Below are positions 3,350 through 55,900 of a stretch of 64,000 nucleotides of DNA, piece after piece (the first letter of the stretch is position 1; the number at the start of each line of letters is the position of its first letter). Source of the stretch: Planctomycetota bacterium (GTDB taxonomy: Bacteria > Planctomycetota > MHYJ01 > JACQXL01 > JACRIJ01). The notes under the pieces are model-generated. The model did no database searches. It saw only the letters and a list, made by a program, of their open reading frames with translations, and had not been told where the DNA came from. The translations under genes were made by a program, and so were the position numbers. The stretch spans positions 4,191-68,190 of the forward strand of contig JACRIJ010000044.1 of the NCBI GenBank assembly GCA_016220095.1, in the 5' to 3' direction.

Positions 3350-3409
3350 AACATTAAATATACTAAAAAAACCGCATAAGTCAAACAAAAACTGAACAGC
3401 TTTGAAAGG

Positions 3410-12405: not shown

Positions 12406-12409
12406 TTTG

Positions 12410-31928: not shown

Positions 31929-34900
31929 TTACGGCGTCGGGTCTATCAGCGGTTCAATATAAAATATCTTGCCCTGACTCGTGCCTATCATATATTTATC
32001 GGCGTCAATATCGTACGAAACCGAAGTAATGTCATGGTTCTGTCCAAAGTAATAATAATAACTTGTGCCGCTGTCGGGATTGCTTACAACCGCGCCGGCT
32101 GAAATATCAATGCCATATATCTTGCCGTTGTTATTGCCTATATATACGAGGCCGTCGCCGATGGTCAAAGGCGTACAGGAAATCTGCACGGCTTCAAGCT
32201 GGATGACAAACGAAGATGCGTCAAATGCCGCATCGGTCTTCGGGGTATTATTCGTTGGTATGGCGTAGAACTTGCCGCCGCTGTCGCCGAAGAACAACAT
32301 GCCCGAATCATCCCACGGAGCGGCCGTAATGCCCGCAGGCACCCTATTGCCTGTCAGTGTATGAGCGGCTCCGGGCCACGGATAACTGGCCACCTCGGCC
32401 GCAAATCCGCCGTAAGGCGATACCGCGTGCACCCATCCTTTATTGGCATTCTGCGAACCGTCATCGGTGACATACAGGTAACTTGACAGCATGGTAGGCG
32501 ACTTGAAGCTCCCGTTCGTATTGCTTATTGAGGCATTAACGACTCCGCCGTCAACATTAATTCTTTCAATCAACGCGCTTCCCGCAACAAAATCAGTTCC
32601 GAGAAACAACCATGTCGTACCGGCATCAACCACAGAAGAAGGCACCGTGTAAATGGCCTTGTCAATAAGTATGTGGCTCACGGGGAAAGACGCCACGCGC
32701 ACCTTGGTGGCTTTATTATAACCAAACAAATATGCCTTGGCATCATCACCGGTGCCTCCGCAATAAATGTTATTATCGTCGGTAATCACCGGCGCTGTAG
32801 CCGGGCTGTCCGTGGCAGGGCTAATGTCAAGGCCGCCAACCCACGGTCCTGCGGCAATATTCAGCGCGGCGCCTGTATCAATCAATTTGACTATCTTGCC
32901 TTTCGTAGTGCCGAAATATATCGTGTGCAGGATTTCCACAACATTAGCGTCACCATCGCAATCGCTTGTATCAACTTCATTATCCCACCATGGCGTACCG
33001 ACGATGTCGCCGCTCGCATCCGGAAGGTCGTAGTAATACACGGGGCTCTTAAGTTTCCCGTCATTGGCAAGCACATAGATGCGGTCAACGGTATTCGCGC
33101 CGTTTATATTACGCGATGCCACATAAGTGGAATACCATCCGGGCACGCCCAGGAATCCAAAGGCATTGGTCGGGAATCCCTGCACAGCCCCCTTAATATC
33201 CGGGTTTGCCGTATAAGTCCAGTTAACTGCCGCACTTGTAACTGTTTCAGTTGCGCTTCCTGCGCCGTTGCCGTTTGTAGCGGCATCCCTGTATTCAAAT
33301 GTCACGCAGACCGACTGGCCGTCCGCAGGCGCGGTATCAATCACTGCAACGCTGTATCCGCCCGGCAGATATGTATCGTCAAAATATACATCAGCCACTG
33401 CCAGTGAAATCGGTCCGTTTTGTTCTATCGTAAGGTGCCTGCCTCCGACAGTGGCATTATAGAATGCCACGGCAGTTAGGGAGGTTATTGCCGCGGTATT
33501 GGTAATATAAAATCCTTTGCCGCCGGTATTAGTATTATATACATCCAAAGCAGTAATGTTGACAGTGCCGTTCAATGTAATATCATAGTATGCCGTCGCG
33601 GGAATTGAACTCAATATGGTGCCGCCGGACGCGGTAAACGCCGCCGCAGAAGCAACCGTAATTACCGAACCGTTGGTCAGGGTAATTGAAGAGCCGGTAT
33701 TCATCGAAAGAGTGCCGCCCGAAACGGTCAAGGTGCCGGAAGCCGGCGCGACCGTATCGCCTATGGTCAAAGCGAGGCCGTTAAGGCTGAAAGTGCCGGA
33801 CTGCAGGGTCAGCAGATTCTTCACGACAACGTTACCGGTCAATTGAGTTGTTATAGCATTTGTATTTATTTTCAGGTTATAAAAAGTTCCCGCGGGAATA
33901 TTAGGCGACACCAACTGGTTGTCCACCGTAACAGTGCCTTTATCGGTACTGATAGTACCCCAGGCGGTGGTATTGCCGGTAACTTTAAGTTCATCGGCAG
34001 TATCGCCGAAAGTAACCGTACCCAGATTATTAAATGTCCCTGATATCTTAATGGTACCGCCGTTAGCATCGTTGGTATCTGAATCCGGCATCTGTATATT
34101 GGAACCGACCTGATTAGTAAAATTCCCGGTCACATTAAGAGTCCTGAAATCCTGCACCGTAATAGTGCCGGAATTATCAACGTTTCCGGAAATCGTCGCA
34201 GAACCTGTAAGGGTATTAATAGCCCCAAAAGTAATAGAGGCGTTTACGCCGAGAGTAGCGTTGCCGCTTATTGTAGTTGTAAGAGAACCCGCTGTTGCGC
34301 CGACCGCAATACTCGCGGTACCGCTCATTGTTACATTACCGTCTATAAGAAAAACCTTCGGACTGGCGCCGCCGGTGGAATATGAAAATGTTGCCGATGT
34401 CATATCAAAACTGCCATGTATTGTAAAACTTATATCATTGCCGCTTATGGACAATGTCCTGCCGTTCTCCATTGTCAAACTGCCTATCTCCACTGAACTT
34501 GAAATAGACGGGTTATTCGTAACTCCAGCTGTAGGTATTACAACCTTGCTGTAGTTCCCAGGAATGGTTAAATTATCTTCCCAATTCAACGGGTCCGTCC
34601 ACACAGCGCTGGTATCGCCTACCCAGGTCTTCTTAGGCCATCTGATAGAACCTGACGTATCCGGGTCAGCGCCGTTCTGCGGGTCTATTTCGTAAGTGCC
34701 GCCGCTGTTCGCGCCGCCGTACGCGGTAAAAGAAATAGCCGGGTTCTGGGCGCCACCGGCCGCCTGGACGTTATTGGTGCAATACGCGTCAAAAGTGCAT
34801 CCGCTGAAGGTCATTCCAGACATGGTTGTATCATTCAATACAAGGTAAACGCCGGACGCAGAGCCGGTTGTCTTACTGAATACGACTCTGTCTAAGGCAA

Positions 34901-37900
34901 ATGAAGGGTCGGCACCTACATTAGCCATGACCATTCCAGTATCCGCGGGATCAATCACATTCAATCCGTTTATATCCACGGTACCTGAAGTACTGAATGT
35001 CATTGAATACCTGTTGCCATTATTAACGGCATTGATTGCCGGTTTTGCTAAAGTATCCGTAGTGCTGAAATCGCCGTTAAATGTCAGCGTACCAGCGGCT
35101 ATTGCCGTTCCGAGGCGCAGGTTACAGCTGTTCTGCATGTCAAGCTTGCCGCTCGCGTTTACGGCAAGGGTTGACTGAACGGTCACATCATCGCCGGCAT
35201 CAAGGGTTAATTTGCCCGTTCCTGTAATTGTAATCTTAAAGAAAGACATGGTACCCGATGTAGCGCCGCCCAGCCCCGTAAATCTTACTTCGGAATCGCC
35301 GCACGTGAACGCGCCACTGTTGATAAGCGAGAATGTGCCCTTAAGATCTATGAAATTCGTGGTAACGCTTTCCACGAGAGTACCGCCATCCACGGTAATG
35401 TTGTTGAATTCCGTGGTTGCGGAGCCGTTTATAACGCCTGAAGCGGTCGTGAACGTTACCGTACTGGAACCGGAATTAAACGTGCCGCCGTTATTTGTCC
35501 AGGCGGCCGCAATCTTGATGGTTGATACGCCGCTTAGAGACAACGACTTTGTATTGGGAATAGTTATATTCGCAAACTGGGTAATATTGTTCCCTGCCAC
35601 GGTTGACGGCGTTCCACTAAATATAACCGTAGAACCGTTTGCCGTAAACGAACCGTCATTAGTCCAGATATTGTTTACGGTTATGGTTTTACCGTTGCCA
35701 TCAAGGACCGCGTTATTGTTTATGGTTATGTTATTCGTGGTAAAGTTGCCGCCGGCGCTTACGGTTGCCGAGGTATTGCTGATGGTTATACTATTGTATG
35801 TCGTAAACGCCGTGACATTCTGTATAGCCGTACCATTATATTCAATTGTTCCGTTGGTATTATCAAACGTAGTTGTAACCGACAATGAAGATTTTATCTT
35901 CAACATACCATTGACGGTCAGGATATTGGAAACGCTTAAAGCGTCGTTAGCCGTAAAAGTATACGTAGTAGGAATTGTAAGGTTATAGAACGCGTCGCCG
36001 CCGGAATCAATTGTACCGTTTGAAGACCGTAAAGTTACGGTAGTGGTATTCGGCGTAAACACCGCAGAGCCGCCGTTATTCCAGTCAGCATTAACCGTAA
36101 TGTTCGCGTTTAACACAAGCGTGCCGCTATTGGTAACTTTACCGTTAATGGTGGAAGATGCTGAACCTATGGTAAGCGAACCGCTATTGGTTACATCGCC
36201 GTTTGCCGTGAAAGCAGGAGACGAAATTGAAATAGAACTGCCAGAACCTGTCGTAAAGGTGCCGTTTATTGTCAAAGAACCGAGGCCGCCGGAGCTGAAC
36301 GTAAAGGTAGGCACGCCTGCGGCGCCGCCGTCCGCATCAAGCGTAAGGTTGCCGTTTAAGGTCAGTTGTTTGTCGGCCGCCGCGGCAGAAACCGAAGCGC
36401 CATCCTGAATCTGTATGCCCGCAACGGTTGAATTAATATCAATGCTTACAGGATAATTGGAAGCGCCTGTCGGGAACACAACTTTATCCCCTGCCTGAGG
36501 TTTGCCGATAGGATTCCAGTTATTATCAACGCTCCATAAATTGCTTACAGTGCCGACCCATTGTTTCGCGGGCCATCTGATTGAACCGGTATTATCAGGA
36601 TTGTTGGCAGGCGGCGCCGGAAGCTGGGAACCGTTATTGTCGTCATTCTCATAGGTCCCGCCGGCCTTAGAACCGCTGGCGCCGAGGAGGTTGACCACAA
36701 GGCCGCCGGCTATCGCGCCCGACGGGGTAAAAACGTTATATTGGCAATTCGCGTCAAACGAACAACCAGCGAACGAATAACTGCCCGCTGTAAAGTTTAT
36801 TTTTATATACGTCCTGCCGGCAAGATACGCACTACTCGTAAATGACGCGTAATCTATGTCAAAACCGGTATTTGCCGTATTCGATATGCTAAGACCGTTC
36901 GCATCAGGATTATTGAAAGTAACATTGTTTATCAACACCTTTCCGGAAGCACCGGACACGGTAAATGAAAAATACGCGCCTTTGTCTGTTACCGTAGGGG
37001 TCAAACCGCTCGTCTGGAACAACCCCTGTATAGCGGCAGAACCAGCCGTAGAAGGCGTTCCCAAACGAAGCACAGAACTTCCGTTCATGGATAATGTACC
37101 GGCACTTGTCACGGTCAACGCATTTGACACCGTTATATCACTGCCGGCATTCAATGCAAGCGTTCCGGTGACCTGAACATTATAGAACGTAGAAGCATTC
37201 GCGCCTTTTACTTCCGCGGTCGTGCCCGTAAAATATACTGTAGAACTGTTCGCGGTAAACGTCCCGTCGTTCTGGAAAACGTTCTTGACCTTAGCCTGGG
37301 CTATGCCGGCGTCAATGCTCATCGTAACGCCGGTATCAACGGTAAGGTTATAGAATTCCGTAACCGCACTGCCCGCAATGGACGAAGCAATGCCGGTAAA
37401 TATTACAGTTGAAGATCCGGTCGTAAACGCGTTGTTATTCGTCCATACGCCATAAACCTTTGCCGTACCTATAGCTCCTATCTGCAGGGTTTTTGTCGCG
37501 CTTATCGTGACATTATTAAATTCCGTTATGGAAGTGCCGCCGATAGTTGAAGGCGCGCCGCTAAATGTTATCGTTGAAGTGCCCTTCTGGAACGTACCGT
37601 TATTGGTAAAATCGCCGCTGACCACGATCGTATAAGCGCCCGCATTAACGACGGCATTCGTTGCAATAGTCAGCGTGCCGTTAAGCGTCACGACGGCGCC
37701 GAATGATACTGTTGCGGATGTATTTGAAACCGTTATATTATTATAAGAAGACGGCGCAGTAGGTATGGACTGGACCACGGTACCGTTGAATTCCAAAGTG
37801 CCGCCGGTTGAATCAAATGCCGCTCCGAACGTTATACCGGATTTCAATTTCAGGGTTCCGGGCAGTGTCAAAGTTCCGCCGGCATTCATGCTTATGCTAT

Positions 37901-40900
37901 CGTTAGCGGTATAAGCGCATCCCGAATTTACTTTCAAACTGTAGAATGACTGGCCGCCGCTTGCTATGGTGCCTGCAACGCCGTTAAAAGTAACCGTGCC
38001 TGAAGGAGTCGTTATGATATTGGTATTTGACCATGAACCCGTAACAGTCATATTGCCGGGTGTTAGCGTGCCGGAATTAGTCAATGAGCCTTTTAATGTA
38101 AAAGCGGTGGCATTGGTAAATGTACCGCTGTTCGTAAAATTACTTTCCATGGTAAAAGTAACCGCATTGGATACGCTCATCGTACCGCCGCTGGTTACGG
38201 CGCCTTTTAACAAAAGAGACGAAGTGGCGCCGGCGCATGAGTAATTAAACTGCCCCACGCCCTCGCCGAGGTTTGATTGTATAACGAGTGTGCCGTTAAC
38301 GGTAAGCTTGATATCATTCGCAGAGGCCGTAAGTACAGCGCCGTCCTGGATTTCAAGGGACGCAAGAGTCGTGGTTATATTCAGGGTAGGCTGTGCTAAC
38401 GCGCCTGTAAATTCGCTTGGACTTGGAATAATAACGCGTTCCGCAGTGGAAGGCACGCCGGACGGCGTCCAATTGTTTGCAGTGCTCCATGAAGTACTTA
38501 CGGAACCGTTCCATTTCTTCGCGGGCCACTGGATGGAACCCGTATTGTCCGGGTCGCCCGGATTCTGCTGGCCGGCCGCGTTGTCATTTTCATAAGCGCC
38601 GCCGGATTTCGCGCCGCTGTAGCCCTGGATTTTCACGACCATGCTTGCGGCAATACTGCCGTTGGCGGTCTGGACGTTATATTGGCAACCGCTGTCAAAA
38701 GAACAACCGGTAAACGCGTAAGTAGAACTGGCAACAATTTTATCTATCTTAAGAAACACACCGACTCCGGAGGAATCCCCGGGGTCAGTAAAGCTGACGT
38801 TGTCAACATCAAATCCTGTCCCTGCGTTCGTCGTAATATTCAAACCGTTGTCCCCAGGATTCTGGAAATTCAATCCGTTAAGCACCACTATGCCGGCGCC
38901 GCTGACCGTCCCCACAGTAAAGGCGTATTTGGAACCGGTATCGGTAACCGTAGGAGTCGTGCCTGAAGATGTAAACGTTCCCTCAATAGTCGCGCCGGTA
39001 ACGCCTAAGCGCAATATTGAATTGCCTGTAAGATTGAACGTGCCGCCTGAAAGCACTGTCAACCCGGTTGAAACGGTAATGTCATCACTGCCGTCCATCG
39101 TCAGAGTACCGGCTATTTTCAGCTGATAGAATGTTGTAGCATTCCCTTCAATCGTACCCGTACTGCCCGTGAACCTTATAACCGTGGAGCCCGGAGTAAA
39201 AGTACCGATATTATTCCAGATGTTTTTCACCCTGACATCGTTAGTAACATCCGACAATGTCGCGCCTGTATTTATTTTCAGGTTATTGAAAACCGTACCC
39301 GCGTTACCCGCAATCTGAGACGAACCGCTGTTGAACGTTACTGTTGAATTGGACGCGGTAAATGTGCCGGTATTGCTGAAAGTCCCGTTCACTTTAATTT
39401 CACTTACGTTTACCGTAAGGGTATTTGTAACGGACAAGTTATTGAATGTGGTAACCGCCGTACCTTCTATAGTTGAAGCGGCGCCTGCGAATGTAACATT
39501 AGAAGTCTGCGACGTAAATGTACCGTTATTTGTCCACTTGCCGTTAATTGTAATGGTATTGCCGCCGCCAATGAACACGGATGAATTGTTTACAGTCAGG
39601 TCCACTGCCGCGATGGCGCCGCCGGCGGTAACGCCGCCCGCGGAAGTATTGCTTACGATAATAACATTATACGTCTCCGCAGGCATGGTCTGCGCGGAAG
39701 TTCCATTAAAATCAACGGTACCGCCCGCCTCGGTAAAGGTTGTTCCGAACGTGATGCCTGTCTTAACCTTAAGATAACCTGAGAGGGTAAACGTTGATGA
39801 TAGAGCAAACGTATCCAAAGCGGTATATACGGAACCCGTAGGTATTGTAACGCTGTTGAACAATGCGCTCCCCATGGTCACGTTACCGGTGGTACCGTTT
39901 AAGGTTACCGTACCAGCGCCTGGTGTAAACGTACCGCTGTTTGTAAAACTGCCGGTAATTATCATATTGCCGGTTGTAAAATTACCGGTATTATTCAGAT
40001 CTCCTGTAACTGCGAATGACGGCGAAGTTGACGTAAAAAAACCCGCGTTCGTCAGCGTGCCTGAAACGTTGAATATCTCAGCGGCCGAACTTACAGTTCC
40101 CTCGTTCTGAATAGTACCGGCATTAAACAAAGAACCCACGCCTGATGATGTAAAATTCAGGTTAGCAGCGGAACCGTATCCCTGGTTGGATTCTATAAAA
40201 AGCTGGTTATTAACTCTGAGAGTTCTATTAGTGCCGCTTGTGGAAAACACCGTACCGTCATATATCATAAGGCTGCCTACGGTGGCATTAATATCCAATA
40301 CGGGGTCATTTGCCGCGCCGACTCTGTCGTCAGGGCTCGGTATAATAACCTTGTCTGAAGCCGTTGGAATGGTACCCGTATTCCAATTGCCCGCGGAACT
40401 CCAGAATTGATTGACATCGCCTTCCCATCTGATGACGCGCCATACGATTGAGCCGCCGCCCGCGACAACGCCTCCCCCCTTATCATTTTCGTAAGTCTCG
40501 CCGGTCCTTAATCCGCTGTCGCCGCTCATAGTAACCGCATTATTCACCACGCCGACATTATTCGTAGTTGACACGTTATACTGGCATCCGTCATTGAACG
40601 TGCATCCCTGGAAGCTGTAAGTATATGCGGCTATTGACGTATAACCGAGGGTAATGTATGTACCCTGGAACAAACCGTCGCTATCGGAAAAAGTTACGTT
40701 ATCTATGTCTATGCTGGTATTAGCATTAGCGGCAATATTTAAACCGTTATCGTTGGGATTCTGGAAAAACAAACCGTTGAGTAAAACTTTTCCTGAATTA
40801 TTCACAGTAAATGAATACTTCGCACCGGTATTGGTAACCACCGGCGTACTGCCTGAAGTGCTGAAAGTCCCGCCCTGAATCGTACATGACACCCCTACGC

Positions 40901-43900
40901 GCAGATAGCATGTATCGGCCATATTCAGAACGCCTGTAACGAGAACCGCGTTATTAGCCTTCAGGTCGTCGCCGCTGTTAAGATTCAATGTGCCGCTCAC
41001 CGTAGTATTGTAAGTTATAAGCGGATTCGTTCCCGCAAGACTGCTGTTACCGCCGTTGAACTCAAGAGTATCATCACCGGCTGTAAATGACCCGTTATTT
41101 GTAAAGATATTCTGTATCTTCAAAGTGCCTGTCGCAGTTGAAATGCCCAGCACGGTGCCGTTAGAGATTTCCATATTATAAAAATTCGTAACCGTAGTAC
41201 CCGAAATATCGCAGGATACTCCCGTAAAATAAACCGTGCTGAAAATCTGCGTAAAAGCGCCGTTATTTACCCAGTTCCCCTTGACTTTCAACTGGTTTAT
41301 CGCGCCTATAGTAAGCGTTTTGACGGTAAATATTTCGATGTTATTGAATTCTGTAACTGAAATGCCGCTTACGGAAGACGGCACGCCCTTGAATACCACT
41401 TTTGATGTTGACGGGGTAAACGTACCGTCATTAGTCCAGTTACCGGTAAGATTGACCGTATATGCCTGGGCATTGAAATTAGCCGATATGCCTATTACAA
41501 TATCTCCGGAAACGGTTACATCGCCGCCGAGTGAAACCGCGGCGCTTGTATTCTCTATATGAAGGTCGTGGTATGACGCGCCACCGGGCGGCTGGGGCAC
41601 TGTCTGGACCGCGGTGCCTGAAAATTCCATTACACCGGCTGTTGACGAAAAAGTGCCGCTCATCGTAATTCCATTTTTTATCTTTAAGGTGCCTTCCACG
41701 CTTAAAGCGCCGCTGACGGTCAACGAATCCGCCGCACTGTAAACCGCGGAAGATATTATCGTAAGATTATTAAAACTTGAACCGCCGCTTGTAAGTGATG
41801 AATTTGCGCCTTTCAACGTAATGGTTCCGGCTCCGGCTGTAAATGTGGCCGAATTGGTGAATGAACCTGATATGCTTACTGTTACCGGCGAAAAAACGCC
41901 CGAATTCGTCACACTGCCGCCGATGGTAAAACTGGCGGAAGATGCGGCATTTGTAAAAGAACCGGTATTGGTAAGATTGCCGTTTATTGTAAACGTTATC
42001 GCATTGCTGACGGAAATGGCGCCGCCGTTGGAGACGTCGCGCTGGATTTCAAGTTTTGAAGTAGTGCCGCCGGAAGTAAAATTCAACTGCCCCGCGCTTC
42101 CTTCGCCCAGGTCGGATTCAATAGTTAATCCGCCCGTTATAACCAACTGCCGGTTATTTCCGGTAGTATCAAGCCGCGAACCGTCTTCCAATATCAAACT
42201 GCCTATGGTGGCATTGGTATTTAGAATGGGATACTCCGTCGTACCGTTATAAACTGGGGCGGTGCTCGGACTGCCGATCTTAACCTTTTCACCCTGTACG
42301 GGAACTCCGTCCGGGGCCCAATTCGCGGCCTCGCTCCAGTTTTGCGTGGAGCCGCCGCCGTCCCATTGCCGTATCGGCCAAACCATATCGCCACCGGCTA
42401 CGTAACCACTGCCGCTCTCGTATTCGTATAGTTCATCGCCTTTCTCGCCGCTTGCCGCAATCATGCTTAAGGCGCTTGCCGCCGCGCTGGCAGGGATGTA
42501 TACGTTGTACTGGCAATACCTGTCAAAACTGCATCCGGAAAAGACATATTTATTGGCGGTAATGCCGGCCATTTCAAGACGCAGGTAATAACCTGTCTGC
42601 AATGTATCGCTATTTGTAAAATTAACGTTATCTATGTTCAGACTGGCCGCGCTGACGATCCGCATGCCGTTATCGTCCGGGTTGGCAAAATTGAGCCCGT
42701 TTATGTTAAGAATGGCAACCGCATTGTTCACCGTAAAAGAAAATTTCGTGCCCGTATCGGTAAGCGTCGGGGTATCCGTAGTTTGAAAAGTTCCGTTTAC
42801 GGTTACTGCCGGTGTGCGTATAGTGCCGTCATTGCTCATGTATAACGTACCCGTGGTTGAAACGGTCAACTGATTCGTTACCGTAACCACATCGCCCGTA
42901 TTAACAACAAGTTTTCCGTCACATTGCAGATTGTAAAAACCAAGATTGGCCCCGGCAACGCCGCCATTCGTGCCGTTAAAAATAACCATTGAAGTCCCGG
43001 CTGAAAACGTGCCGCTGTTTGTGAACGTACCCCTGAGTTTGACCTGCCCTATCGCGCCTATGGAAAGCGTACAGGTATTCTCAAGCGAAATATTATTGAA
43101 CGTGTCCGCAACGACGCCGTTTATCACGGATGAAGCGCCGGTGAAAATGATCGTTGAATTGCCTGAAACAAAACCGGCTGTTGCCGCGTTATTGTCCTGC
43201 CAATTGCCGGAAACCTTTATGGTTTCGCCGGTATTGGTTATAGTCAATGTCGCATTATTGCTTATGGTGACATTATTGAACGTAGGCATGCTTATGCCCT
43301 GGACTTCGGAATTTGCGCCCGCGAATACAACGGTGGAAGAACTGCCGTTGAAAGTGCCGTTATTGATAAAGTTGCCGTTAATGGTAATCTGGGAATTGCC
43401 GCCGGATAACGTTGCGCCCTGGTTGATTGTCAGGTTGCCGTTCACAACAATATTACCCTGCAAGGTTACAGTACTGGAAAGATTGTTGATTACGAGATTA
43501 TTGTAGGTCTTAGCAGGAATACTCTGCGAAATTGAGCCGTTTAATTCCAGCGTACCGCCTGCGGGCGTAAACGTCGCAGGAATGGATATCGCCTTCTGTA
43601 CCTTTAAATAGCCCGCGAGAACCAACGTATCGGTAATAGTAAAATCGTCCGTAGCAGTATAGGAAGACGTTGAAGGGAAATTAACCTTAAAATAACTCCC
43701 GAGGCCTGATGCGATAGTCCTGTTTACGCCCTTGAAATAAACCGTACCCGCGCCGGGAGTAACCATACCCGTGTTATCCCAGTTGCCGAATATATTTATG
43801 GAAACCGGCGTTAGCGCGCCTGAATTTACCATATCGCCGCGCACGGTAAAAAACGCATTCGCCGCGGCAATATTGTTTGTTACAGTGCCGGTATTGAACA

Positions 43901-45248
43901 AATTGCCTTGGATGTCAATGGAGCCTGTCGTGATATTCTGTATGGTAAAATCGCCGTAATTATTGAAATCGCCGCCCACGTCCAGGTAAACGTTCGTACC
44001 TGCCGCGACGCCCCATACGACTGAACCGGCCGCACCCGCTCCGGTATCCGCTTCAATGGTAAAATCACCGGCAACGTTTAACGTCCTGCTGCTGTTAGAG
44101 GTCAGGTTGCCCCCGTCTTCGATAAGAAGAGAAGCTACATTTGCGTCCGTATTTAAGTTTGGCGCGAACTGGTTTGCAAGCGTTGATTCATCGGGAATAA
44201 TTATACGATCGGCGCCTGTAGGAGTTGCATTAGGATTCCAGTTATTGGATGAGCTCCATTGGGTAGTGCCGTTGCCGGCGTCCCATTTCTTTTCCACCCA
44301 GACGATGCTCCCGGGAGTTATTATGCCGCCGCTTGTCTTATCGTCTTCCCATGTCACACCGCCTTTTGTCCCGCCGTATCCGACCATGGATACGGAACTG
44401 TTCGGCGTACCCGCGGTAGTCCTTATGTTATACTGGCAATAGGTATCAAACGTGCAATAGCTTACGCTGTAAGGCGCCTGCGACCAGTCGTTCAGCAGAA
44501 ATTGCAGATAAACGCCGGCTTCAAGCCCGTCGCTATCCGTAAAGTTTATGCCGCCGATGGTCTGCGTCAGTGACGCGGTATTGACAATCTTGAGGCCTTC
44601 GTTATCGGGATTCGTTATGTTCAAATCGGAAACATCGAGAGAACCGCCGTTCTGAACTATGAAAGAAAGCTTTGAACCCGTATCGGCAATGCTCGGAACG
44701 GAACCGCTTGAATTAAACGTGCCTTCAACAACAACTGCCTTGACATTCATCTGGCAGGAGTTTACCATGTAAAAAGACGCACCGTTGTTAACCTTAAACT
44801 GGTTCAACACGGTAATCGTATCGCCGGCATCCATGGTAAGCTTGCTTGAAACCGTAACGTTATAAAAAGTAGGCGCCACGAGGCACGTGCCAATGGTGGA
44901 ATTACTGCCGTTGAATTCCACGGTTGACGTACCGTAATTGAAAGTGCCGTTGTCAATGAATTCGCCGCCTATCCTCAGGGTCGTTACACCGGCTCCCAAA
45001 GAAAGCGTTTTCATGTCGTCTATCTTCAAATTACTAAATGACTGCGTGGCACTGCCGTTGACGGAAGAACTCGTGCCCGTGAATATGACGGTGGAACCGG
45101 TGCTGGTAAAAGTGCCGTTATTCGTCCACGCATTGACAATTTTTACCGGCATGGCAAGTGTAAATGATTTGGCATTGATGATTTCCAGGTCATAGAATTC
45201 CGTCGTGCTTGTGCCGATAACGTACACGGGAGAACCGTTACAACTCAA
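31929..45248 (-). CDS. Giant secreted repeat protein, downstream part (4439 aa): six super-repeats plus a C-terminal beta-propeller. It is almost certainly continuous with 45311..48106 through a -1 frameshift.
   Basis: The ORF track gives 4439 aa. The modules recur with (G)SI(R/Q)WP(A/K)K(K/Q/T)W(N/V)G...W(S/T)xxxNWxPxG(V/K)PxxxxKV(I/V)IP, (G)C(S/T)FDxxCQYN(V/I), L(N/V)G(L/V)NF(Q/A)NP(D/G)DNG(L/M) and ITINGN(F/W)xNNGTFT. The last 550 aa or so are propeller-like (IYCGGTGDDAKAYLFGYN, GLVYIGNNNGKIYGID). Confidence 0.85.
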   Translation of the reverse strand: MSCNGSPVYVIGTSTTEFYDLEIINAKSFTLAMPVKIVNAWTNNGTFTSTGSTVIFTGTSSSVNGSATQSFSNLKIDDMKTLSLGAGVTTLRIGGEFIDNGTFNYGTSTVEFNGSNSTIGTCLVAPTFYNVTVSSKLTMDAGDTITVLNQFKVNNGASFYMVNSCQMNVKAVVVEGTFNSSGSVPSIADTGSKLSFIVQNGGSLDVSDLNITNPDNEGLKIVNTASLTQTIGGINFTDSDGLEAGVYLQFLLNDWSQAPYSVSYCTFDTYCQYNIRTTAGTPNSSVSMVGYGGTKGGVTWEDDKTSGGIITPGSIVWVEKKWDAGNGTTQWSSSNNWNPNATPTGADRIIIPDESTLANQFAPNLNTDANVASLLIEDGGNLTSNSSRTLNVAGDFTIEADTGAGAAGSVVWGVAAGTNVYLDVGGDFNNYGDFTIQNITTGSIDIQGNLFNTGTVTNNIAAANAFFTVRGDMVNSGALTPVSINIFGNWDNTGMVTPGAGTVYFKGVNRTIASGLGSYFKVNFPSTSSYTATDDFTITDTLVLAGYLKVQKAISIPATFTPAGGTLELNGSISQSIPAKTYNNLVINNLSSTVTLQGNIVVNGNLTINQGATLSGGNSQITINGNFINNGTFNGSSSTVVFAGANSEVQGISMPTFNNVTISNNATLTITNTGETIKVSGNWQDNNAATAGFVSGNSTIIFTGASSVINGVVADTFNNISLENTCTLSIGAIGQVKLRGTFTNSGTFSAGTSMVIFNGTNGGVAGANLGFYNLQCDGKLVVNTGDVVTVTNQLTVSTTGTLYMSNDGTIRTPAVTVNGTFQTTDTPTLTDTGTKFSFTVNNAVAILNINGLNFANPDDNGMRIVSAASLNIDNVNFTNSDTLQTGYYLRLEMAGITANKYVFSGCSFDRYCQYNVYIPASAAASALSMIAASGEKGDELYEYESGSGYVAGGDMVWPIRQWDGGGSTQNWSEAANWAPDGVPVQGEKVKIGSPSTAPVYNGTTEYPILNTNATIGSLILEDGSRLDTTGNNRQLVITGGLTIESDLGEGSAGQLNFTSGGTTSKLEIQRDVSNGGAISVSNAITFTINGNLTNTGSFTNAASSASFTIGGSVTNSGVFSPVTVSISGSFTNSATFTAGAGTITLKGANSSLTSGGSSFNNLTIISSAVYSAADSLTVSGALSVEGTLKIKNGITMSGTFSSTAGVMEFSGTAVQTVPQPPGGASYHDLHIENTSAAVSLGGDVTVSGDIVIGISANFNAQAYTVNLTGNWTNDGTFTPSTSKVVFKGVPSSVSGISVTEFNNIEIFTVKTLTIGAINQLKVKGNWVNNGAFTQIFSTVYFTGVSCDISGTTVTNFYNMEISNGTVLGISTATGTLKIQNIFTNNGSFTAGDDTLEFNGGNSSLAGTNPLITYNTTVSGTLNLNSGDDLKANNAVLVTGVLNMADTCYLRVGVSCTIQGGTFSTSGSTPVVTNTGAKYSFTVNNSGKVLLNGLFFQNPNDNGLNIAANANTSIDIDNVTFSDSDGLFQGTYITLGYTSIAAYTYSFQGCTFNDGCQYNVSTTNNVGVVNNAVTMSGDSGLRTGETYENDKGGGVVAGGGSIVWRVIRWEGDVNQFWSSAGNWNTGTIPTASDKVIIPSPDDRVGAANDPVLDINATVGSLMIYDGTVFSTSGTNRTLRVNNQLFIESNQGYGSAANLNFTSSGVGSLFNAGTIQNEGTVSSAAEIFNVSGTLTNAGFFTSTSPSFAVTGDLNNTGNFTTGNMIITGSFTNSGTFTPGAGTVTLNGTTGNVTMGSALFNSVTIPTGSVYTALDTFALSSTFTLSGYLKVKTGITFGTTFTEAGGTVDFNGTSAQTMPAETYNVIIVSNTSAGGVTAGGAIAAVDLTVNNSSVFIGGGNTITINGKWTNNGTFTSQTSNVTFAGAASTIEGTAVTTFNNLSVTNTLTVNVSEIKVNGTFSNTGTFTASNSTVTFNSGSSQIAGNAGTVFNNLKINTGATLSDVTNDVRVKNIWNNIGTFTPGSTVIRFTGSTGTIEGNATTFYQLKIAGTLTMDGSDDITVSTGLTVLSGGTFNLTGNSILRLGVTGATIEGTFTSSGTTPTVTDTGSKYAFTVGTVSGAGIVVLNGLNFQNPGDNGLNITTNAGTGFDVDNVSFTDPGDSSGVGVFLKIDKIVASSTYAFTGCSFDSGCQYNVQTANGSIAASMVVKIQGYSGAKSGGAYENDNAAGQQNPGDPDNTGSIQWPAKKWNGSVSTSWSTANNWTPSGVPSTAERVIIPSPSEFTGALAQPTLNITTTLASLEIQDGAVLTASANDIKLTVNGTLVIQSNLGEGVGQFNYSCAGATSSLLLKGAVTSGGTMSVSNAVTFTMESNFTNSGTFTNATAFTLKGSLTNSGTLTPGNMTVTGSWSNTNIITTPSGTVTFNGVAGTIASGGQSFYSLKVNSGCAYTANDSISMNAGGTLTLPGTLKLKSGITFGAAFDSTGGTLEFNGTVVQSIPTAPSSYNNITVSNTSATVSFGAVVTLNGTLTIATNAVVNAGAYTIVVSGDFTNNGTFQKGTSTITFSGAPSTIGGTSITEFNNVTISATKTLQIGAIGTAKVYGVWTNNNAFTTGSSTVIFTGIASSIAGSAVTEFYNLTVDTGVTMSIDAGIAQAKVKNVFQNDGTFTANSSTVYFTGTTAEVKGANASTFYNVQVTGTLALNAGSDITVSNALTVTSAGTLSMNGSSVLRLGTPSTAGSAAIQGLFQTSGLTPTVTDKGAYFSFTVSGASGKVLINNVTFNNPDANGLSISNTANTGFDIDYASFTSSAYLAGRTYIKINFTAGSYSFAGCSFDANCQYNVFTPSGAIAGGLVVNLLGASGSKAGGTYENDDNNGSQLPAPPANNPDNTGSIRWPAKQWVGTVSNLWSVDNNWNPIGKPQAGDKVVFPTGASNYPVSIDINSTVAGIQIQDGASVSAAAADKQLTLNGNLTLDADGGAAGVPTFTFSSGGLGSLTINGTFTTGSGSSISISSPAFTANGDVTNSGSLTIGSASSTINGKVTNSGTLVLNANITVNADWNNGGSAVFTPNTTTVTLRSSNGTIDSGGDAFYNLTIPTTYTFTANDALSVSNILTVNGMLKIKSSLSVTTTFDNTNGTIEYNGTAIQNVTAFTTYNSITISNTSATVSAGGNFTTNNITINNNAVLDGNGKTITVNNIWTNDGSFTANGSTVIFSGTPSTVAGNNITQFANITIPNTKSLSLSGVSTIKIAAAWTNNGGTFNSGSSTVTFTTASGVINGSATTEFNNITVDGGTLVESVTTNFIDLKGTFSLINSGAFTCGDSEVRFTGLGGATSGTMSFFKITITGTGKLTLDAGDDVTVQSTLAVNASGKLDMQNSCNLRLGTAIAAGTLTFNGDFSTTDTLAKPAINAVNNGNRYSMTFSTSGTVDINGLNVIDPADTGMVMANVGADPSFALDRVVFSKTTGSASGVYLVLNDTTMSGMTFSGCTFDAYCTNNVQAAGGAQNPAISFTAYGGANSGGTYEIDPQNGADPDTSGSIRWPKKTWVGDTSAVWTDPLNWEDNLTIPGNYSKVVIPTAGVTNNPSISSSVEIGSLTMENGRTLSISGNDISFTIHGSFDMTSATFSYSTGGASPKVFLIDGNVTMSGTASIAVGATAGSLTTTISGNATLGVNASITFGAINTLTGSATISGNVDNSGTITVQDFRTLNVTGNFTNQVGSNIQMPDSDTNDANGGTIKISGTFNNLGTVTFGDTADELKVTGNTTAWGTISTDKGTVTVDNQLVSPNIPAGTFYNLKINTNAITTQLTGNVVVKNLLTLQSGTFSLNGLALTIGDTVAPASGTLTVSGGTLSMNTGSSITLTNGSVITVASAAAFTASGGTILSSIPATAYYDITLNGTVNITALDVYNTNTGGKGFYITNTAAITSLTAVAFYNATVGGRHLTIEQNGPISLAVADVYFDDTYLPGGYSVAVIDTAPADGQSVCVTFEYRDAATNGNGAGSATETVTSAAVNWTYTANPDIKGAVQGFPTNAFGFLGVPGWYSTYVASRNINGANTVDRIYVLANDGKLKSPVYYYDLPDASGDIVGTPWWDNEVDTSDCDGDANVVEILHTIYFGTTKGKIVKLIDTGAALNIAAGPWVGGLDISPATDSPATAPVITDDNNIYCGGTGDDAKAYLFGYNKATKVRVASFPVSHILIDKAIYTVPSSVVDAGTTWLFLGTDFVAGSALIERINVDGGVVNASISNTNGSFKSPTMLSSYLYVTDDGSQNANKGWVHAVSPYGGFAAEVASYPWPGAAHTLTGNRVPAGITAAPWDDSGMLFFGDSGGKFYAIPTNNTPKTDAAFDASSFVIQLEAVQISCTPLTIGDGLVYIGNNNGKIYGIDISAGAVVSNPDSGTSYYYYFGQNHDITSVSYDIDADKYMIGTSQGKIFYIEPLIDPTP

Positions 45249-45310
45249 CTTTGAAGTGCCGTAGTTAAAAGTTCCGTTATTTGTTAACGTGCTGTTATTG
45301 GCGTTTAATG

Positions 45311-48106
45311 TTATGTATAGGTGCCGGCGCTGAGCGTCGCCAGGGAATTTATCGTCAGCGTACCGTTCACCAATGTATTGCCCGCGAGGGAAACCGCCGC
45401 GGAGGTATTGCTTATCTTGAGGTTATTGTACGTCCACGCCGGCACTGTCTGGGCCGCTGTGCCGTTGAATTCCACCGTGCCCGTGGTGGACGAAAACGCG
45501 CCGCTTACGGATATCGTACTCGTTACCTTGATCGTGCCGGGCAAGGTTAAATTGCGGTCAATTACCAAACTGTCAAGGGCCGTATATACCTTGCCGTTAT
45601 TAATATCCACATCGTAGAAACTTGAAGCGCCTCTGGTGATATTGCCCATGGAACCATTAAAAATGACCTTTTTGTTATTGTGCGTATAGGAAGCGGAATT
45701 GGTCCAACTGCCGCCTACGGTCACGTTGCCGGGGTTAAATGAACTGGTATTAACGACGTTTCCGCTGATAGTAAAAGTACCGCTGACACTTGCGGTAAAA
45801 CCGGCGTTATTTTCAACGTTCCCGCTGATGGTGCAATTCAGCGCCGTTATGCTTATCGTGCCCGAAGATACGACGTTTCCCGATATGGTAAGCTGTGAAC
45901 CGACCACGGACTCGTTATAAGTAAATGCCGCAACGCCGTTTCCGTCATCAGGATATAATACCAGGGCGCCGCTTATGGTCAACGTCCTGCCGACGCCGTC
46001 AGTCGTTAACTGCGCGCCGCTTTCAATTTCAATTGACGCCGCAACGCCGTTGGCATTAAGGACGGGATTATAGGTGACTTTGGGAATCCGCACCCTTTCC
46101 GTCGCCAACGGAACTGAAGCAGGGCTCCAGTTGCCATTGGTATTCCACGAAGTAAGATTGCCCACAGTGCCGCCAACCCATGTCTTTTTCGGCCATCTTA
46201 TGGAACCGTTATCGTCAGGAGCGCCTGCGGTAACCTTGCCGAGGGACTGGTCGTCTTCATACTGACCGCCGCCTTTGCCGCCGGTATAACCCTGCATGGT
46301 AACAGTCTCAGTATTCCATGTCCCTGCGGATAACGTACGCACGTTAAATTGGCAGGCAAGGTCAAATGTGCAGTTTGAAAAAGTATATGAAGTGCCTGTA
46401 GGGTCAAAAGAAAAGTTCAGATAAACGCCGGATGCCTGGCCGTCGGTATTCGTAAAATTAATGCTGGCAAGGCTGAGAGCCGCGGGTTTTGTGGTAAATT
46501 TCATGCCTTCGTTGTCCGGGTTCTTGAAATCAAGCCTGGAAATACTGATATTGTTGGCGGAACTGAAAGTCCACGTAAAATACGCGCCCCTGTCAATAAC
46601 GGTCGGTGACAATGTGCCGTTAGCCGTAAAGTTTCCGCTTATTGTCGCGGACGTACCTACTCGCAAAGTACAATTATCCGTCAGGGTCAAAGTTCTGCCC
46701 GCGGCTACTGTTATAGTATTAACGGCAAGATCGTCGCCGGCGTCAAGAGTTAACGCGCCTGTAGCCGAAATAGTGCACGTGTATAATGTCAACGGCGCCG
46801 TACCGAGCAATGCACAGGAGCCGCCGTTATAAGTCACTATCCTTGTCCCTGGGACAAACGTTGATTGGTTGTTCGTCCAATTGCCGTTGACCGTATAGTC
46901 GGCAAGCGCAGTTGCGGACACTGTAGCGCTTATGATTATATTATTAAATGTCTCCGCGGCATCTGGCAGAATGGGATTGCTTCCTGAAAATACCACCGTA
47001 GAAGTACCTTCTGCAAATGCCACATCTCCGATGTTATTATCCCACGTACCGCCGTTGATGGTTATGGTATTGGCATTGGCATTTACGGCTGTCGCGCTTT
47101 GCATAAAAAATGTGCCGAGAACTGAAAAAGACCTGCTGATAGTAAACGTAGCGCCGGCCTTGTTCAACGTAAGATTATTGAAAGACGAATCCGCGGCGCC
47201 GCCAAGGGTAGCAGTATTGTCCGCGGCAGTCATGGTTACGGTATAGTTGCCGGGATTAAATGTGCCGTCGCATGTCCAGTTGTCCGTTACAATAATATTT
47301 GTATTGGCTGTCATGACACAGCTTGCGTTGATCTTTAATCTGTAAAATTGCGTGGGATTTGAACCCGCTGTAACAGTCCCGGCGGTCCCGTTGAATTCCA
47401 CCGAACATGTATTGCCTTCAATAAATGAGCCGGTTTCAATAAAATCGCCTTTCACGCGCAAAGTGCAGGTTGCCGTACTCGCGTCAAGGGTCATGCCTGT
47501 GGGAATAACCATGGAAGGCACTTCAAGAATGGAATTAGCTACAAAGATCTCAAAAACGCCGCTGTTCGTCCATGTAAAATTATTGTTTACAACCAGTTTA
47601 GTCGCCGTGGCATTACCCAGGAAAACGAGGTTATTTGAGCCGTCAAGGTCGGCAAACTCCAGGTTATCCACGGATAAGGTATCCGTAGCATTATCAGCTT
47701 CTATATAAACATCCGAACCTGAAGACATCTTCAACTTAAGAAAACCCGTTCCGGTCAGATAAGCGGTCGCATTGCCGCTGGAAAGAAGCTGGACATCATC
47801 CCGGACGAGCAGGTTATTGTCCATAATAAGCGTTGCGCCGGCCCTTATCTGAAAATCATTCACCTCGGACGGCTGATTCAATATGACGTAATCGCCGGCA
47901 TTATTAATAATCGCCAGATCGCCTTCCCTGGGCACGCTGTTGGAACTCCAGTTCGCAGGATCGCTCCATGAAATGCCGTCTCCGCCGCCGTCCCATGTCC
48001 TGGTCGCGGCAACCGCTCCGCCTGCAAAAAGGCATAAAAACACAAGACAAATCATTGCGCGTAAAAACAGACGCCTGAATCTGACAGGTTTAAAAATCCC
48101 TATCAT
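45311..48106 (-). CDS. Giant secreted repeat protein, upstream part (931 aa, signal peptide plus two super-repeats).
   Basis: The N-terminus is MIGIFKPVRFRRLFLRAMICLVFLCLFAGGAVAATRTWDGGGDGISWSDPANWSSNSVP. AGGAGG lies 4 nt upstream of the ATG at 48106. The internal module start GSIRWPKKTWVGGTVGNLTSWNTNGNWSPASVP is the same as in 31929..45248. It ends ...LTINSLATLSAGTYT*. Confidence 0.85.
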   Translation of the reverse strand: MIGIFKPVRFRRLFLRAMICLVFLCLFAGGAVAATRTWDGGGDGISWSDPANWSSNSVPREGDLAIINNAGDYVILNQPSEVNDFQIRAGATLIMDNNLLVRDDVQLLSSGNATAYLTGTGFLKLKMSSGSDVYIEADNATDTLSVDNLEFADLDGSNNLVFLGNATATKLVVNNNFTWTNSGVFEIFVANSILEVPSMVIPTGMTLDASTATCTLRVKGDFIETGSFIEGNTCSVEFNGTAGTVTAGSNPTQFYRLKINASCVMTANTNIIVTDNWTCDGTFNPGNYTVTMTAADNTATLGGAADSSFNNLTLNKAGATFTISRSFSVLGTFFMQSATAVNANANTITINGGTWDNNIGDVAFAEGTSTVVFSGSNPILPDAAETFNNIIISATVSATALADYTVNGNWTNNQSTFVPGTRIVTYNGGSCALLGTAPLTLYTCTISATGALTLDAGDDLAVNTITVAAGRTLTLTDNCTLRVGTSATISGNFTANGTLSPTVIDRGAYFTWTFSSANNISISRLDFKNPDNEGMKFTTKPAALSLASINFTNTDGQASGVYLNFSFDPTGTSYTFSNCTFDLACQFNVRTLSAGTWNTETVTMQGYTGGKGGGQYEDDQSLGKVTAGAPDDNGSIRWPKKTWVGGTVGNLTSWNTNGNWSPASVPLATERVRIPKVTYNPVLNANGVAASIEIESGAQLTTDGVGRTLTISGALVLYPDDGNGVAAFTYNESVVGSQLTISGNVVSSGTISITALNCTISGNVENNAGFTASVSGTFTISGNVVNTSSFNPGNVTVGGSWTNSASYTHNNKKVIFNGSMGNITRGASSFYDVDINNGKVYTALDSLVIDRNLTLPGTIKVTSTISVSGAFSSTTGTVEFNGTAAQTVPAWTYNNLKISNTSAAVSLAGNTLVNGTLTINSLATLSAGTYT

Positions 48107-48231
48107 ACATCCTCCTATATATATTTATTCCATTACCAAACCGCTAAAGGCGGTTCCGGAGATTGAATCGTCACTGCCTGCCACAGTCCTGTCGCAATCC
48201 TGAGCGGAGCGAAGGGAGTAAAACGAAGGGC

Positions 48232-48300: not shown

Positions 48301-49423
48301 GATTGCTGATCTGATATGTCCTTCTCCGACTGCTTAATTTCATTTCCGTCGCCGCATTCAGGATTGAACGACCGCTCATCCTTGTGCCTGCTCATTCAGG
48401 TGTGTATCCCGAGTTTCGGAAATACAATCACAGAAAGCAGTATCCATACGCCGACAACGGCAATCATTATCAATAATGACGAAATATCCATACGCGTAGT
48501 CCCATTAGTGTCTTACGTTTCAACTTCTGCACAAAAAGCACAAAAATTTAAATGTTCCGAAAACTCCAAACACGAACCCCTAAACTATAAAGCAACATAG
48601 CCGCAACCAAACAGTTGTTCGCCTTATGAAATTCTAAGCACTAAGCTCTAAATCCTAAACAAATTCTAAATCCAAATTCTCCAAACCCGGCGGACGACCA
48701 TGTTTCGGTCATTTGAGTTTAGATATTGTTTAGGCTTTCGGACTCGTCCTACGAAGCCTTGGCGCAGTAGGATTTAGGGATTAGAGTTTTATCATCCGTC
48801 AGAATGTTTGGCATTTTTCTGTAAATATTCGCGACTTCGTGTCTTCGCGGCAAAAATCGCCGCAGTTCTCAGTGTTCTCTGAGGTTGACGTCTTGTTGCG
48901 ACTGTCTATTTTCTACATATATTATACCACAAAACACGGGATTTTGTCAAGGCGGAAAAGATAATTTTTGTATCGCCTCCGTGAAAGTCGTAATTTCATA
49001 AAAAACCAAAAACAGGATTTTGTAGAGACACGCGATCGCGTGTCTCTACAGAGTTTGATTATATTTTAACTCTTGAAAGCGACCTTCACTGAGTCCTTAC
49101 TAAATTTTGCAACCCGTCAGTAAACGGGTAAACACGAACTACGGACGTTCTTTAACAGGGACTCTACAAGACCTTAAACGGGATACAACGACCTAACGAA
49201 GAATAAATAATGGGAATCCGATATCCAAGATCCGGCGCTCGGTACCCAACGCCCGGAACCTGAAATTCTAAACCCGGATATCAACCTGTTTCCTATTATA
49301 TAAGTATAGTATTATCAATACATTACACCTTAAAATCAACCTATTCGTTATTTAACATGAATTTTTCATGCTTTTTGTAAAAGACTATAAAGATTTTATT
49401 ACAAAAAAGCCGATAATAGGAGT

Positions 49424-49519: not shown

Positions 49520-49948
49520 ATGGAGGCGGTTATGGAGAACCTGAAACAACGGTTATTTCAAGGCAAGCGTGACTCCGCGGCCCAGGGCAGGCATCAGGGC
49601 GGCGCCCTTGCGTATGGATACACAAAGGCCTATAATCCTGAGCTGAAGGCCGTTACCCTTAAAGTGGAACCCTTTGAAGCAAGCGTAGTCATGAAGATGT
49701 ACAGGGAATATCTGAAATTCCGCAGTCTGTCGCGGGTGGTTGATTCCCTGAATTCCTGCAACATCCCTACGCGCAACGGCAAGTCATGGTCGCGGCCTGC
49801 CGTAGGCTTTATCTTATCCAACGAACTCTATCTCGGCAAGGTCAAATACGGAACCGTAAAGGCAAAAGGACTTCACTGCCCTATTATCTCGCCAATAGTA
49901 TTCAATAAAGTCCAGCAATTAAAACAACAGAACCTGAAAAAGAAATAA
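49520..49948 (+). pseudogene. Remnant of a large serine recombinase. Only the 'recombinase' domain is present; the N-terminal resolvase catalytic domain and the C-terminal zinc ribbon are missing.
   Basis: The 142-aa ORF reads QGRHQGGALAYGYTKAYNPELKAVTLKVEPFEASVVMKMYREYLKFRSLSRVVDSLNSCNIPTRNGKSWSRPAVGFILSNELYLGKVKYG. This matches the recombinase-domain pattern G..PYGY...E..VV..IF..Y..G.S...IA..LN..GI.T..GK.W....V..IL.N..Y.G. Upstream of it there are only repeats, so the catalytic domain is absent. Confidence 0.55.
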
Positions 49949-53785: not shown

Positions 53786-53787
53786 CT

Positions 53788-55803: not shown

Positions 55804-55900
55804 CAAAACTGCCTCCAATAATTACATCAAAAACGTAACTATTATTATTATCAACAAATTATATTCAAGTCAATAAAAAAACACCTGTTCAAGCGCCGTT

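Follow-up and report, generated by a model that had tools for sequence, protein, structure and literature searches.

A frameshifted giant gene of a Planctomycetota bacterium probably encodes a surface protein with a stalk of tandem, predicted beta-solenoid modules and a putative propeller head

Introduction

Giant repetitive surface proteins are common, and usually consist either of chains of Ig-like domains of ~100 amino acids (aa) or of one continuous beta-helix. The type V beta-helix adhesins (Ag43, HxuA, EspC/EspP/Hbp, EtpA and FHA) are long, Thr/Gly/Asn-rich, non-enzymatic right-handed beta-solenoids that form extended surface structures, and in another group of proteins, among them CEMIP/TMEM2 and fibrocystin/PKHD1 (the latter with two G8-beta-helix units), the G8 domain (PF10162) is combined with PbH1 repeats. 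In Omnitrophota, giants of the Archaeovorin and Dockerin types exceed 30,000 aa and contain HEAT, TPR, SecA-like, dockerin and thrombospondin repeats as well as a novel antiparallel beta-helix tubule (bioRxiv 10.1101/2023.11.21.568195). Here we describe a giant gene of a Planctomycetota bacterium, located at positions 31929 to 48106, minus strand, of a 64,000-nt stretch of contig JACRIJ010000044.1 (assembly GCA_016220095.1, positions 4,191 to 68,190); this whole stretch is referred to below as the window, and all coordinates are given within it. The literature found on giant genes in Omnitrophota and Planctomycetes concerns different proteins, and a search for G8 literature yielded nothing beyond papers on eukaryotic G8 and beta-helix work on other subjects.

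The locus is best explained as a single gene, interrupted by a frameshift, for a stalk-and-head surface protein in which an array of large, separately capped modules carries a C-terminal head. We consider this explanation, taken as a whole, to be probable.

Results

Two open reading frames of one gene

A preliminary description of this DNA, made from the sequence, had assigned positions 31929-48106 to one giant protein. The reading-frame listing shows two open reading frames (ORFs) instead. ORF-A (45311-48106, minus strand; 931 aa, ending at a TAA stop) covers a signal peptide and module 1 and extends 300 aa into module 2; a Shine-Dalgarno sequence, AGGAGG (48111-48116, minus strand), read directly from the sequence, lies 4 nt ahead of its ATG. 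ORF-B as annotated (31929-45248, minus strand; 4439 aa) begins with TTG, and its frame, -1 relative to that of ORF-A, is open from 45422 to 31932, a run of 4,497 codons (~13.5 kb). The lengths of both match exactly the public gene calls MBI5359737.1/HZA48_04050 (ORF-A) and MBI5359736.1/HZA48_04045 (ORF-B), each labelled 'hypothetical protein' in a metagenome-assembled genome (MAG) of a Planctomycetes bacterium.

The two frames meet at 45311-45320 (minus strand; acctatac|ataacatt), where a 1-nt shift is located inside module 2, at ~45317. Frame 0 reads ..LATLSAGTYT* at this site and the -1 frame reads ITLNANN.. (ITLNANNSTLTNNGTFNYG). Restoring one base after 'acctatac' (~45317) yields ..AGTYTITLNANNSTLTNNGTF.., in register with the other modules: the merged frames contain the element 'AG.YTI.L.GN..NNGTF', which the other modules have at the equivalent position. 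The frame-restored product is 5,392 aa long, encoded by a gene of ~16.2 kb.

According to the GenBank annotation, the locus would hold two genes, one for a secreted 931-aa protein and one for a 4,439-aa protein translated from the TTG at 45248; in a variant of this reading the break would be bypassed by programmed frameshifting or would act as a phase switch. Both ORFs do stand in the deposited MAG, and a related locus, HY720_10820/10825 (L081, ~10690), is also split, at a G6 run, a type of tract able to phase-vary. However, the break in the window is mid-module, and on its far side the repeats go on exactly in register; the TTG, which is mid-module too, has no Shine-Dalgarno site and starts a product with no signal peptide. 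Neither a homopolymer nor a slippery heptamer (X XXY YYZ), a stop-stimulated slippery sequence or any other programmed-frameshift signal was found at the shift site. The third split relative is merely a scaffold gap (N10; L084, ~9940), and intact relatives are known: P0069, P0070 and P0071 (P denotes proteins and L genome loci throughout) are single ORFs of 4,867-5,770 aa. Two separate genes, or a recoded or switching one, are therefore unlikely.

It is thus probable, as part of the same joint judgement, that ORF-A and ORF-B represent one ancestral gene broken by a 1-nt deletion in module 2, and that the adjacent 'hypothetical proteins' MBI5359736.1 and MBI5359737.1 are one gene. Given that ORF-B has no further interruption in the 4,497 codons of its frame, and that relatives have the gene as an intact single ORF, the break would be due to an error of the assembly or else to a mutation that inactivated the gene very recently. 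An exact-pattern search of metagenome contigs for an intact-frame copy of the shift site returned no match and a protein-based scan only distant relatives; ORF-A and the downstream gene, looked up exactly in a contig index, gave no match either.

An old array of ~640-aa modules

The restored protein begins with a Sec-type signal peptide (48005-48106, minus strand; residues 1-34, MIGIFKPVRFRRLFLRAMICLVFLCLFAGGAVAA, with a putative cleavage site), which is also its sole transmembrane-like segment: Kyte-Doolittle values above 1.6 were found only in 19-residue windows starting at residues 8-19 (spanning ~8-37). A regular expression for the Trp-rich opening, W..W.G...W...NW..P, matches at eight sites (merged residues 38, 638, 1275, 1910, 2561, 3194, 3850 and 4495), spaced by 600-651 aa, whereas composition-preserving shuffles contain 0.83 sites on average and 4 at most. 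All four opening motifs quoted in the preliminary description are present in the sequence. In an autocorrelation with BLOSUM scores, offsets of 638-642 and 1276-1285 aa stand out (z 6.6-6.9, as against at most 4.0 after shuffling).

Cutting the protein at the openings gives eight modules, all on the minus strand: module 1 (M1; 46214-48004, 597 aa), module 2 (44319-46213, 632 aa once the frame is corrected, holding the frameshift), module 3 (42399-44318, 640 aa), module 4 (40461-42398, 646 aa), module 5 (38547-40460, 638 aa), module 6 (36594-38546, 651 aa), module 7 (34659-36593, 645 aa) and module 8 (33132-34658), followed by a C-terminal domain of ~400 aa (31932-33131). M2-M7 align pairwise end to end over the full ~640 aa, with 34-44% identity; when BLAST was run with SEG filtering and composition-based statistics, the same pairs showed 32-44% identity at E 1e-54 to 1e-156. 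The self-comparison has thus brought out a long-range periodicity and not short low-complexity matches, in agreement with the preliminary description.

The first and last copies depart from this pattern. M1 is a shorter, divergent copy (26-32% identity to the other modules, E 1e-24 to 1e-37), lacking ~80 aa of the consensus (positions 222-303 of the module hidden Markov model, HMM) and the GSIxWP junction described below. M8, also divergent and shortened, has a canonical opening, shows clear homology only over its first ~180-300 aa (HMM positions 1-175; ~290 aa by filtered BLAST) and has in place of the closing cap a degenerate one (VYFDDTYLPGGYSV ... AAVNW) without the Cys pair. Of the eight complete super-repeats initially counted, seven can accordingly be retained as complete, M1 with its internal gap among them, and the eighth is partial. 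The ordered set of motifs said to follow each opening does recur, with C[QT][YFN]N[VI] found seven times and variants of NPDDNGL in M1-M7.

In codon alignments the modules share 43-54% of their nucleotides (29-36% of those at third positions), and no stretch of 24 nt or longer is repeated exactly; the high divergence that had been put forward against a recent duplication or an assembly artefact is therefore real, and collapse of repeats by the assembler is excluded. One might still ascribe the periodicity to composition, since Thr, Gly, Ser and Asn make up 46% of the residues and shuffled modules score up to 69 bits in unfiltered BLAST. The end-to-end alignments nevertheless persist under SEG and composition correction, an assembler could neither create nor collapse copies so divergent, and the same architecture is seen in independent genomes, so that an artefact of either kind can for practical purposes be dismissed. 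The module repeat is real and old.

Within the modules, BLOSUM autocorrelation also revealed a weak nested sub-repeat of ~55-60 aa. The claim that the repeat arose from whole units and not by expansion of a small internal repeat thus holds in that a whole domain of ~640 aa is what repeats; it has to be qualified in that small-repeat expansion also had a part.

Each module is a predicted, separately capped beta-solenoid

The structure of one module, a step proposed in the preliminary description, was predicted for M6 with AlphaFold2 from an alignment of the six modules. The all-beta model (pLDDT 84.6, pTM 0.78) has 71 short strands, which lie between residues 55 and 600 and correspond to ~24 rungs per module if there are three strands per rung; its confidence drops in the last ~45 residues, which constitute the inter-module linker. 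Foldseek returned no significant match to the Protein Data Bank (PDB; best E 0.037). The first 26 matches, none of them significant, are all beta-helix proteins except for the S-layer protein RsaA (ranks 13 and 18), the best of them being right-handed beta-helices, and the non-significant matches include HxuA, Ag43, EspC, VacA, Hbp, SepA, an antifreeze protein, PL6 lyases and tailspikes. The module is accordingly predicted, from this model, to be a separately capped beta-solenoid.

Each module would open with a G8-like Trp-rich cap, W..W.G...W...NW..P, and close with a Cys-x5-Cys cap, GCSFDxxCQYNV. Pfam was scanned at E <= 0.1 with seven segments covering all but module 2. G8 (PF10162) matched the openings of M1 (21.8 bits, residues 52-98) and M6 (21.2 bits, residues 26-89), both below the gathering score of 22.9; a match above that score was found in M7 (26.6 bits), located mid-module (residues 376-486), and the other scanned modules had no G8 match. 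Neither NCBIfam nor PADLOC matched the modules or the tail, a marginal HEAT match in the neighbouring gene being all that these scans gave, and a profile search of PDB sequences with the module found nothing below E 0.035. As neither Pfam nor NCBIfam covers the module, it could be defined as a new family. Its central element, 'F.N..I ... G.W.NNG.F..G.STV.F.G', is common to thousands of other proteins.

Almost every column that is invariant between modules is Gly, Phe, Asn, Trp, Pro or Cys, and this sequence pattern points to a structural rather than a catalytic module. The opposite possibility is that the modules are catalytic beta-helix domains, similar to polysaccharide lyases or glycosidases, and the protein a multi-enzyme polymer-degrading array and not a stalk. 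The predicted fold is common to PL6 lyases, pectin methylesterase, polygalacturonases and tailspike depolymerases (among which are non-significant Foldseek matches), the adjacent gene bears Beta_helix, NosD and pectate-lyase-like repeats, and Planctomycetes are known to degrade polysaccharides. However, no catalytic family of Pfam or NCBIfam was matched at E <= 0.1; the only invariant charged residues, D216, R494 and E633, are far apart in the sequence; and relatives attach a separate enzymatic head (Peptidase_C25), suggesting that the array itself is a carrier. A catalytic array thus appears improbable, and a structural one is preferred.

A family of multi-module giants with variable heads

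A 641-position module HMM was used in an exhaustive search of 1.84 billion representative proteins, which yielded 9,500 matches at E <= 1e-3 and 624 at E <= 1e-30. Among the best 150 matches and the genome loci, full-length module matches were found only in a few giants: P0069 (5,630 aa), P0070 (4,867 aa), P0071 (5,770 aa), P0072 (3,357 aa, incomplete because of a scaffold gap) and P0074+P0075, plus the loci L001 and L002. The family is defined here from P0069-P0075, L001 and L002, and is small, with about seven giants besides the window protein; those that bear a label come from MAGs of the PVC group. L001, a relative of P0070, lies on the Planctomycetota contig JBFWNO010000064, and the split HY720_10820/10825 (MBI4614091.1+MBI4614092.1) is among the members. 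All members are hypothetical or unannotated; the taxon labels, where given, are Planctomycetes/Planctomycetota, Lentisphaeria and, for the MAG of L002, 'uncultured archaeon'. The gene neighbourhood is not conserved among the members compared. One genome, GCA_964467555.1, bears two paralogous giants of the family, P0069 and P0071.

Segmentation with the HMM shows a shared plan, in which the signal peptide and the opening lead into a divergent first module; 3-6 full canonical modules of 640-700 aa come next, then a partial last module, and finally a C-terminal head. The window protein has six full matches (695-787 bits) between a split first match and a last match limited to HMM positions 1-175; in its relatives, 3-5 full matches are flanked in the same way. 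The modules are joined by a common junction, C-x5-C-[YF]NV ... YE[ND]D, a variable Gly/Pro/Asp-rich linker of 5-20 aa, and GSIxW(PxK), which was found, with variants, at all seven junctions of the window protein and at 28 junctions of relatives; the part YE[ND]D-linker-GSIxWPxK is missing from the start of M1 and from the mature N-termini of relatives.

In the window protein (..AVAATRTWDGGGDGISWSDPANW), P0069, P0070, P0071 and P0074, W.GGGDG..W....NW directly follows the signal peptide. More widely, 17 of 51 and 47 of 105 signal-peptide-bearing relatives have the opening motif within their first 75 aa, and at least three internal copies of the opening were counted in 77 of the best 150 relatives. 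The suggestion that each repeat opens with a motif of the kind that marks a mature N-terminus is borne out by these data, as the W-rich motif of the openings is the one that M1 and many relatives have after the signal peptide.

The Trp-rich opening also recurs in other giant beta-helix proteins, L003 (from a Planctomycetota MAG), L004, P0073 and P0076, with periods of ~360/475, ~840-870 and ~1,100-1,245 aa. Giants built from capped beta-helix units of various sizes seem to be widespread in the superfamily.

The tail of the window protein (its last ~400-430 aa) had one Pfam match, to Beta-prop_ACSF4 (E 0.004; 17 bits against a cut-off of 133), and no match when used alone in a word-index homologue search. 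By BLAST against the matches of the exhaustive search, five other giant beta-helix proteins (P0094, P0081, P0121, P0101 and P0079) have a similar domain at their extreme C-termini, with 27-33% identity to the window tail (E 1e-20 to 1e-38). AlphaFold2 modelled the tail with low to moderate confidence (pLDDT 58, pTM 0.61), and the model gave 942 Foldseek matches in the PDB at E <= 1e-3, the best being Tako8/Cake8, YxaL and BamB (E ~2e-9; target TM 0.6-0.78). On the basis of this model, the tail is predicted to be an 8-bladed PQQ/BamB/YxaL-like beta-propeller. Pfam detected no Peptidase_C25 in it, and no type IX secretion system (T9SS) sorting domain (PF18962), which is present in distant matches such as P0023 and P0053. 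A propeller head is shared by the fragment P0094; Peptidase_C25 heads are carried by P0070 and P0075 (E 2e-40 and 2e-78) and also by P0069 and P0071. Since the window tail is a predicted propeller without C25 and most relatives have C25, the C-terminal head is variable and does not define the stalk.

Duplication within an already multi-module gene

A neighbour-joining tree of 31 full modules was constructed. In L002, P0069, P0074+P0075 and P0071, modules are orthologous by position (first with first, second with second, and so on) at 90-100% bootstrap; the array therefore already existed in the common ancestor of these four, and has not been homogenised by concerted evolution. This makes the module tree a clean case of long-term stability in a large tandem array without concerted evolution. 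The six canonical modules of the window have no one-to-one orthologues, and their mean identity is 39.5% among themselves versus 34.2% to outside modules.

The preliminary description had proposed that the gene arose by head-to-tail fusion or duplication of whole surface-protein genes; on the fusion reading, independent genes would each have supplied one module with a mature N-terminus of its own. In favour of fusion, the internal openings carry the motif that M1 and many shorter relatives show directly behind their signal peptide, and each module looks like a complete capped domain. Fusion nevertheless finds no donor: among the best 150 of the 9,500 matches there is no stand-alone single-module protein with a full-length match, the lowest score listed there being 228 bits compared to 460-790 bits for true modules. 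In addition, the window modules resemble each other, on average, more than they do outside modules; the YEND-linker-GSIxWP junction is kept in modules and family members and missing from true N-termini; and no signal-peptide relics occur between modules, the N-terminal one being the only such segment on the Kyte-Doolittle scale. A fusion origin is accordingly decidedly unlikely. The sequences favour, though they do not prove, that the whole module was duplicated in tandem, long ago, in a gene that already had several modules, because stand-alone single-module proteins with a full-length match are missing from the best 150, the window modules are on average closer to each other than to outside modules and the junction is missing from true N-termini.

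A proposed stalk-and-head surface protein

The gene product would be a Sec-exported, non-enzymatic, fibre-like surface or extracellular protein, with the order signal peptide, one divergent module, six canonical ~640-aa modules, one shortened module and a predicted 8-bladed PQQ-like propeller. With ~24 rungs, each module would measure ~10-12 nm, and the array, if extended and rigid, could serve as a spacer of ~75-95 nm, a stalk that would hold the terminal propeller off the cell as a putative binding head; in relatives, the same stalk would bear a C25 cysteine-peptidase head. If this is true, the number of modules (4-6 canonical copies in complete proteins) would set the reach of the head from the cell.

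One alternative (which makes use of the same junctions) is a polyprotein: the linkers, often with Asp-Pro, would be processing sites that release ~7 capped 640-aa beta-helix subunits, each beginning much like a mature N-terminus, for a surface layer or fibre, with the C25 head of relatives as the built-in processing enzyme. The low model confidence and variable length of the linkers fit this scenario, as do the C25 heads common in the family. It is, however, very improbable as a whole, given that the GSIxWP strand precedes the motif inside the array yet is missing at the mature N-terminus of M1, and that the window protein has no protease head.

Several observations weigh against the stalk-and-head explanation or parts of it. 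The handedness and exact geometry of the predicted solenoid depend on one model from a six-sequence alignment, with non-significant Foldseek matches, and the propeller model, at pLDDT 58, is of low confidence. In the module tree, the clade holding only window modules has a bootstrap of 37%, rising to 49% with the P0072 modules and to 60% when modules 2-4 of P0070 are added. The frameshift, if real, may leave the gene non-functional in this organism. Finally, we infer that the protein would have to pass the outer membrane, and no anchoring signal (C-terminal transmembrane segment, T9SS C-terminal domain or autotransporter barrel) was found in the protein, nor a dedicated secretion gene nearby. 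An autotransporter barrel (PF03797) or TPS domain (PF05860) was matched neither by the modules (E <= 0.1) nor by the tail (E <= 10), and PF12951 (PATR, autotransporter-associated beta-strand) repeats were not matched by the scanned module segments at E <= 0.1.

Neighbouring genes and features

A gene for a 949-aa protein (29036-31885, minus strand), with its own Shine-Dalgarno sequence, lies 43 nt downstream of the giant gene. Its product combines a signal peptide, a PQQ beta-propeller, fn3, a right-handed beta-helix and PPADQ proline repeats with a C-terminal hydrophobic helix followed by basic residues, in the manner of an anchor. The end of this gene is overlapped by 4 nt by a HEAT-repeat gene (28368-29039, minus strand). 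It is possible that both genes share an operon with the giant gene, and it could be speculated that the 949-aa protein is a cell-bound partner of the giant protein.

Two other predicted exported products are encoded in the window, a 1,275-aa Beta_helix protein (4229-8056, plus strand) and a 413-aa ORF without a Pfam match (2147-3388, minus strand), whose PPTPPP and C-terminal transmembrane-like helix form a tail in the style of the 949-aa neighbour. The module HMM matched none of these three proteins, and the opening motif is absent from the 949-aa and 1,275-aa beta-helix proteins.

Upstream of the giant gene, GC content dips to 0.425 between 48100 and 50000. This region contains a perfect sigma-70 consensus (TTGACA-18-TATAAT with TG; 48950-48921, minus strand) ~815 nt before the giant-gene ATG, a hairpin with a 19-bp stem (49015-49056) and a 142-aa recombinase fragment (49520-49948), and may be a mobile-element remnant. 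Farther away, genes for a 676-aa PilM/FtsA-like protein and then a 389-aa protein with a heavy-metal-binding HMBD motif occupy 52616-55818 (minus strand); no other pilus or secretion genes were found among the window ORFs scanned. A BsoBI-type restriction endonuclease gene (Pfam E 4e-145) overlaps a DNA methylase gene at 11452-13870 (minus strand), forming a type II restriction-modification pair, and coaC-like (Flavoprotein) and coaB-like (DFP) ORFs at 56635-58256 (minus strand) are each complete and separated by a 266-nt spacer, the usual form being a fused coaBC. Both pairs were checked as possible indel-broken genes; neither is broken, and they are uninformative on the assembly error rate.

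Discussion

The systems described so far resemble the window protein in different respects. Closest are its own relatives, the multi-module giants, with which it shares the passage from signal peptide to opening, the order of modules, the C-x5-C [YF]NV cap, the YE[ND]D-linker junction and the partial last module; it differs from them in its propeller head, in having the most canonical modules (six) and in the absence of one-to-one module orthologues.

The G8 proteins have in common with it a Trp-rich opening and 'P..GD.V.IP', followed by a beta-helix that in the window module is predicted, a combination that can repeat in a chain. However, the matches of the window openings to G8 stay below the gathering score, the window module is ~5 times longer, and neither the Cys-pair cap nor the junction is part of G8. 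For the propeller, the likeness to the 8-bladed propellers of BamB and YxaL lies in the predicted fold (Foldseek E 2e-9 to 1e-7), whereas sequence identity is just 9-17%, no Pfam PQQ, PQQ_2 or Beta-prop_ACSF4 match reaches its gathering score, and the window propeller sits at the end of a 5,392-aa chain.

To the type V adhesins the window protein is similar in composition and in its predicted solenoid, with a non-significant structural match (TM ~0.2-0.3), but each of these adhesins is one continuous helix and the window protein an array of capped 640-aa domains that lacks a barrel or TPS domain. The Omnitrophota giants, likewise very large and predicted to be extracellular, come from a related superphylum of uncultured bacteria and have a proposed role in cell-surface contact (bioRxiv 10.1101/2023.11.21.568195); they differ in domain content and are far larger, and nothing was seen to indicate homology with the window protein.

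Nothing here overturns current understanding. A giant beta-helical surface protein is of a known kind; what appears to be new, as far as sequence and models can tell of the fold, is the tandem arrangement of complete, capped 640-aa solenoids with swappable heads.

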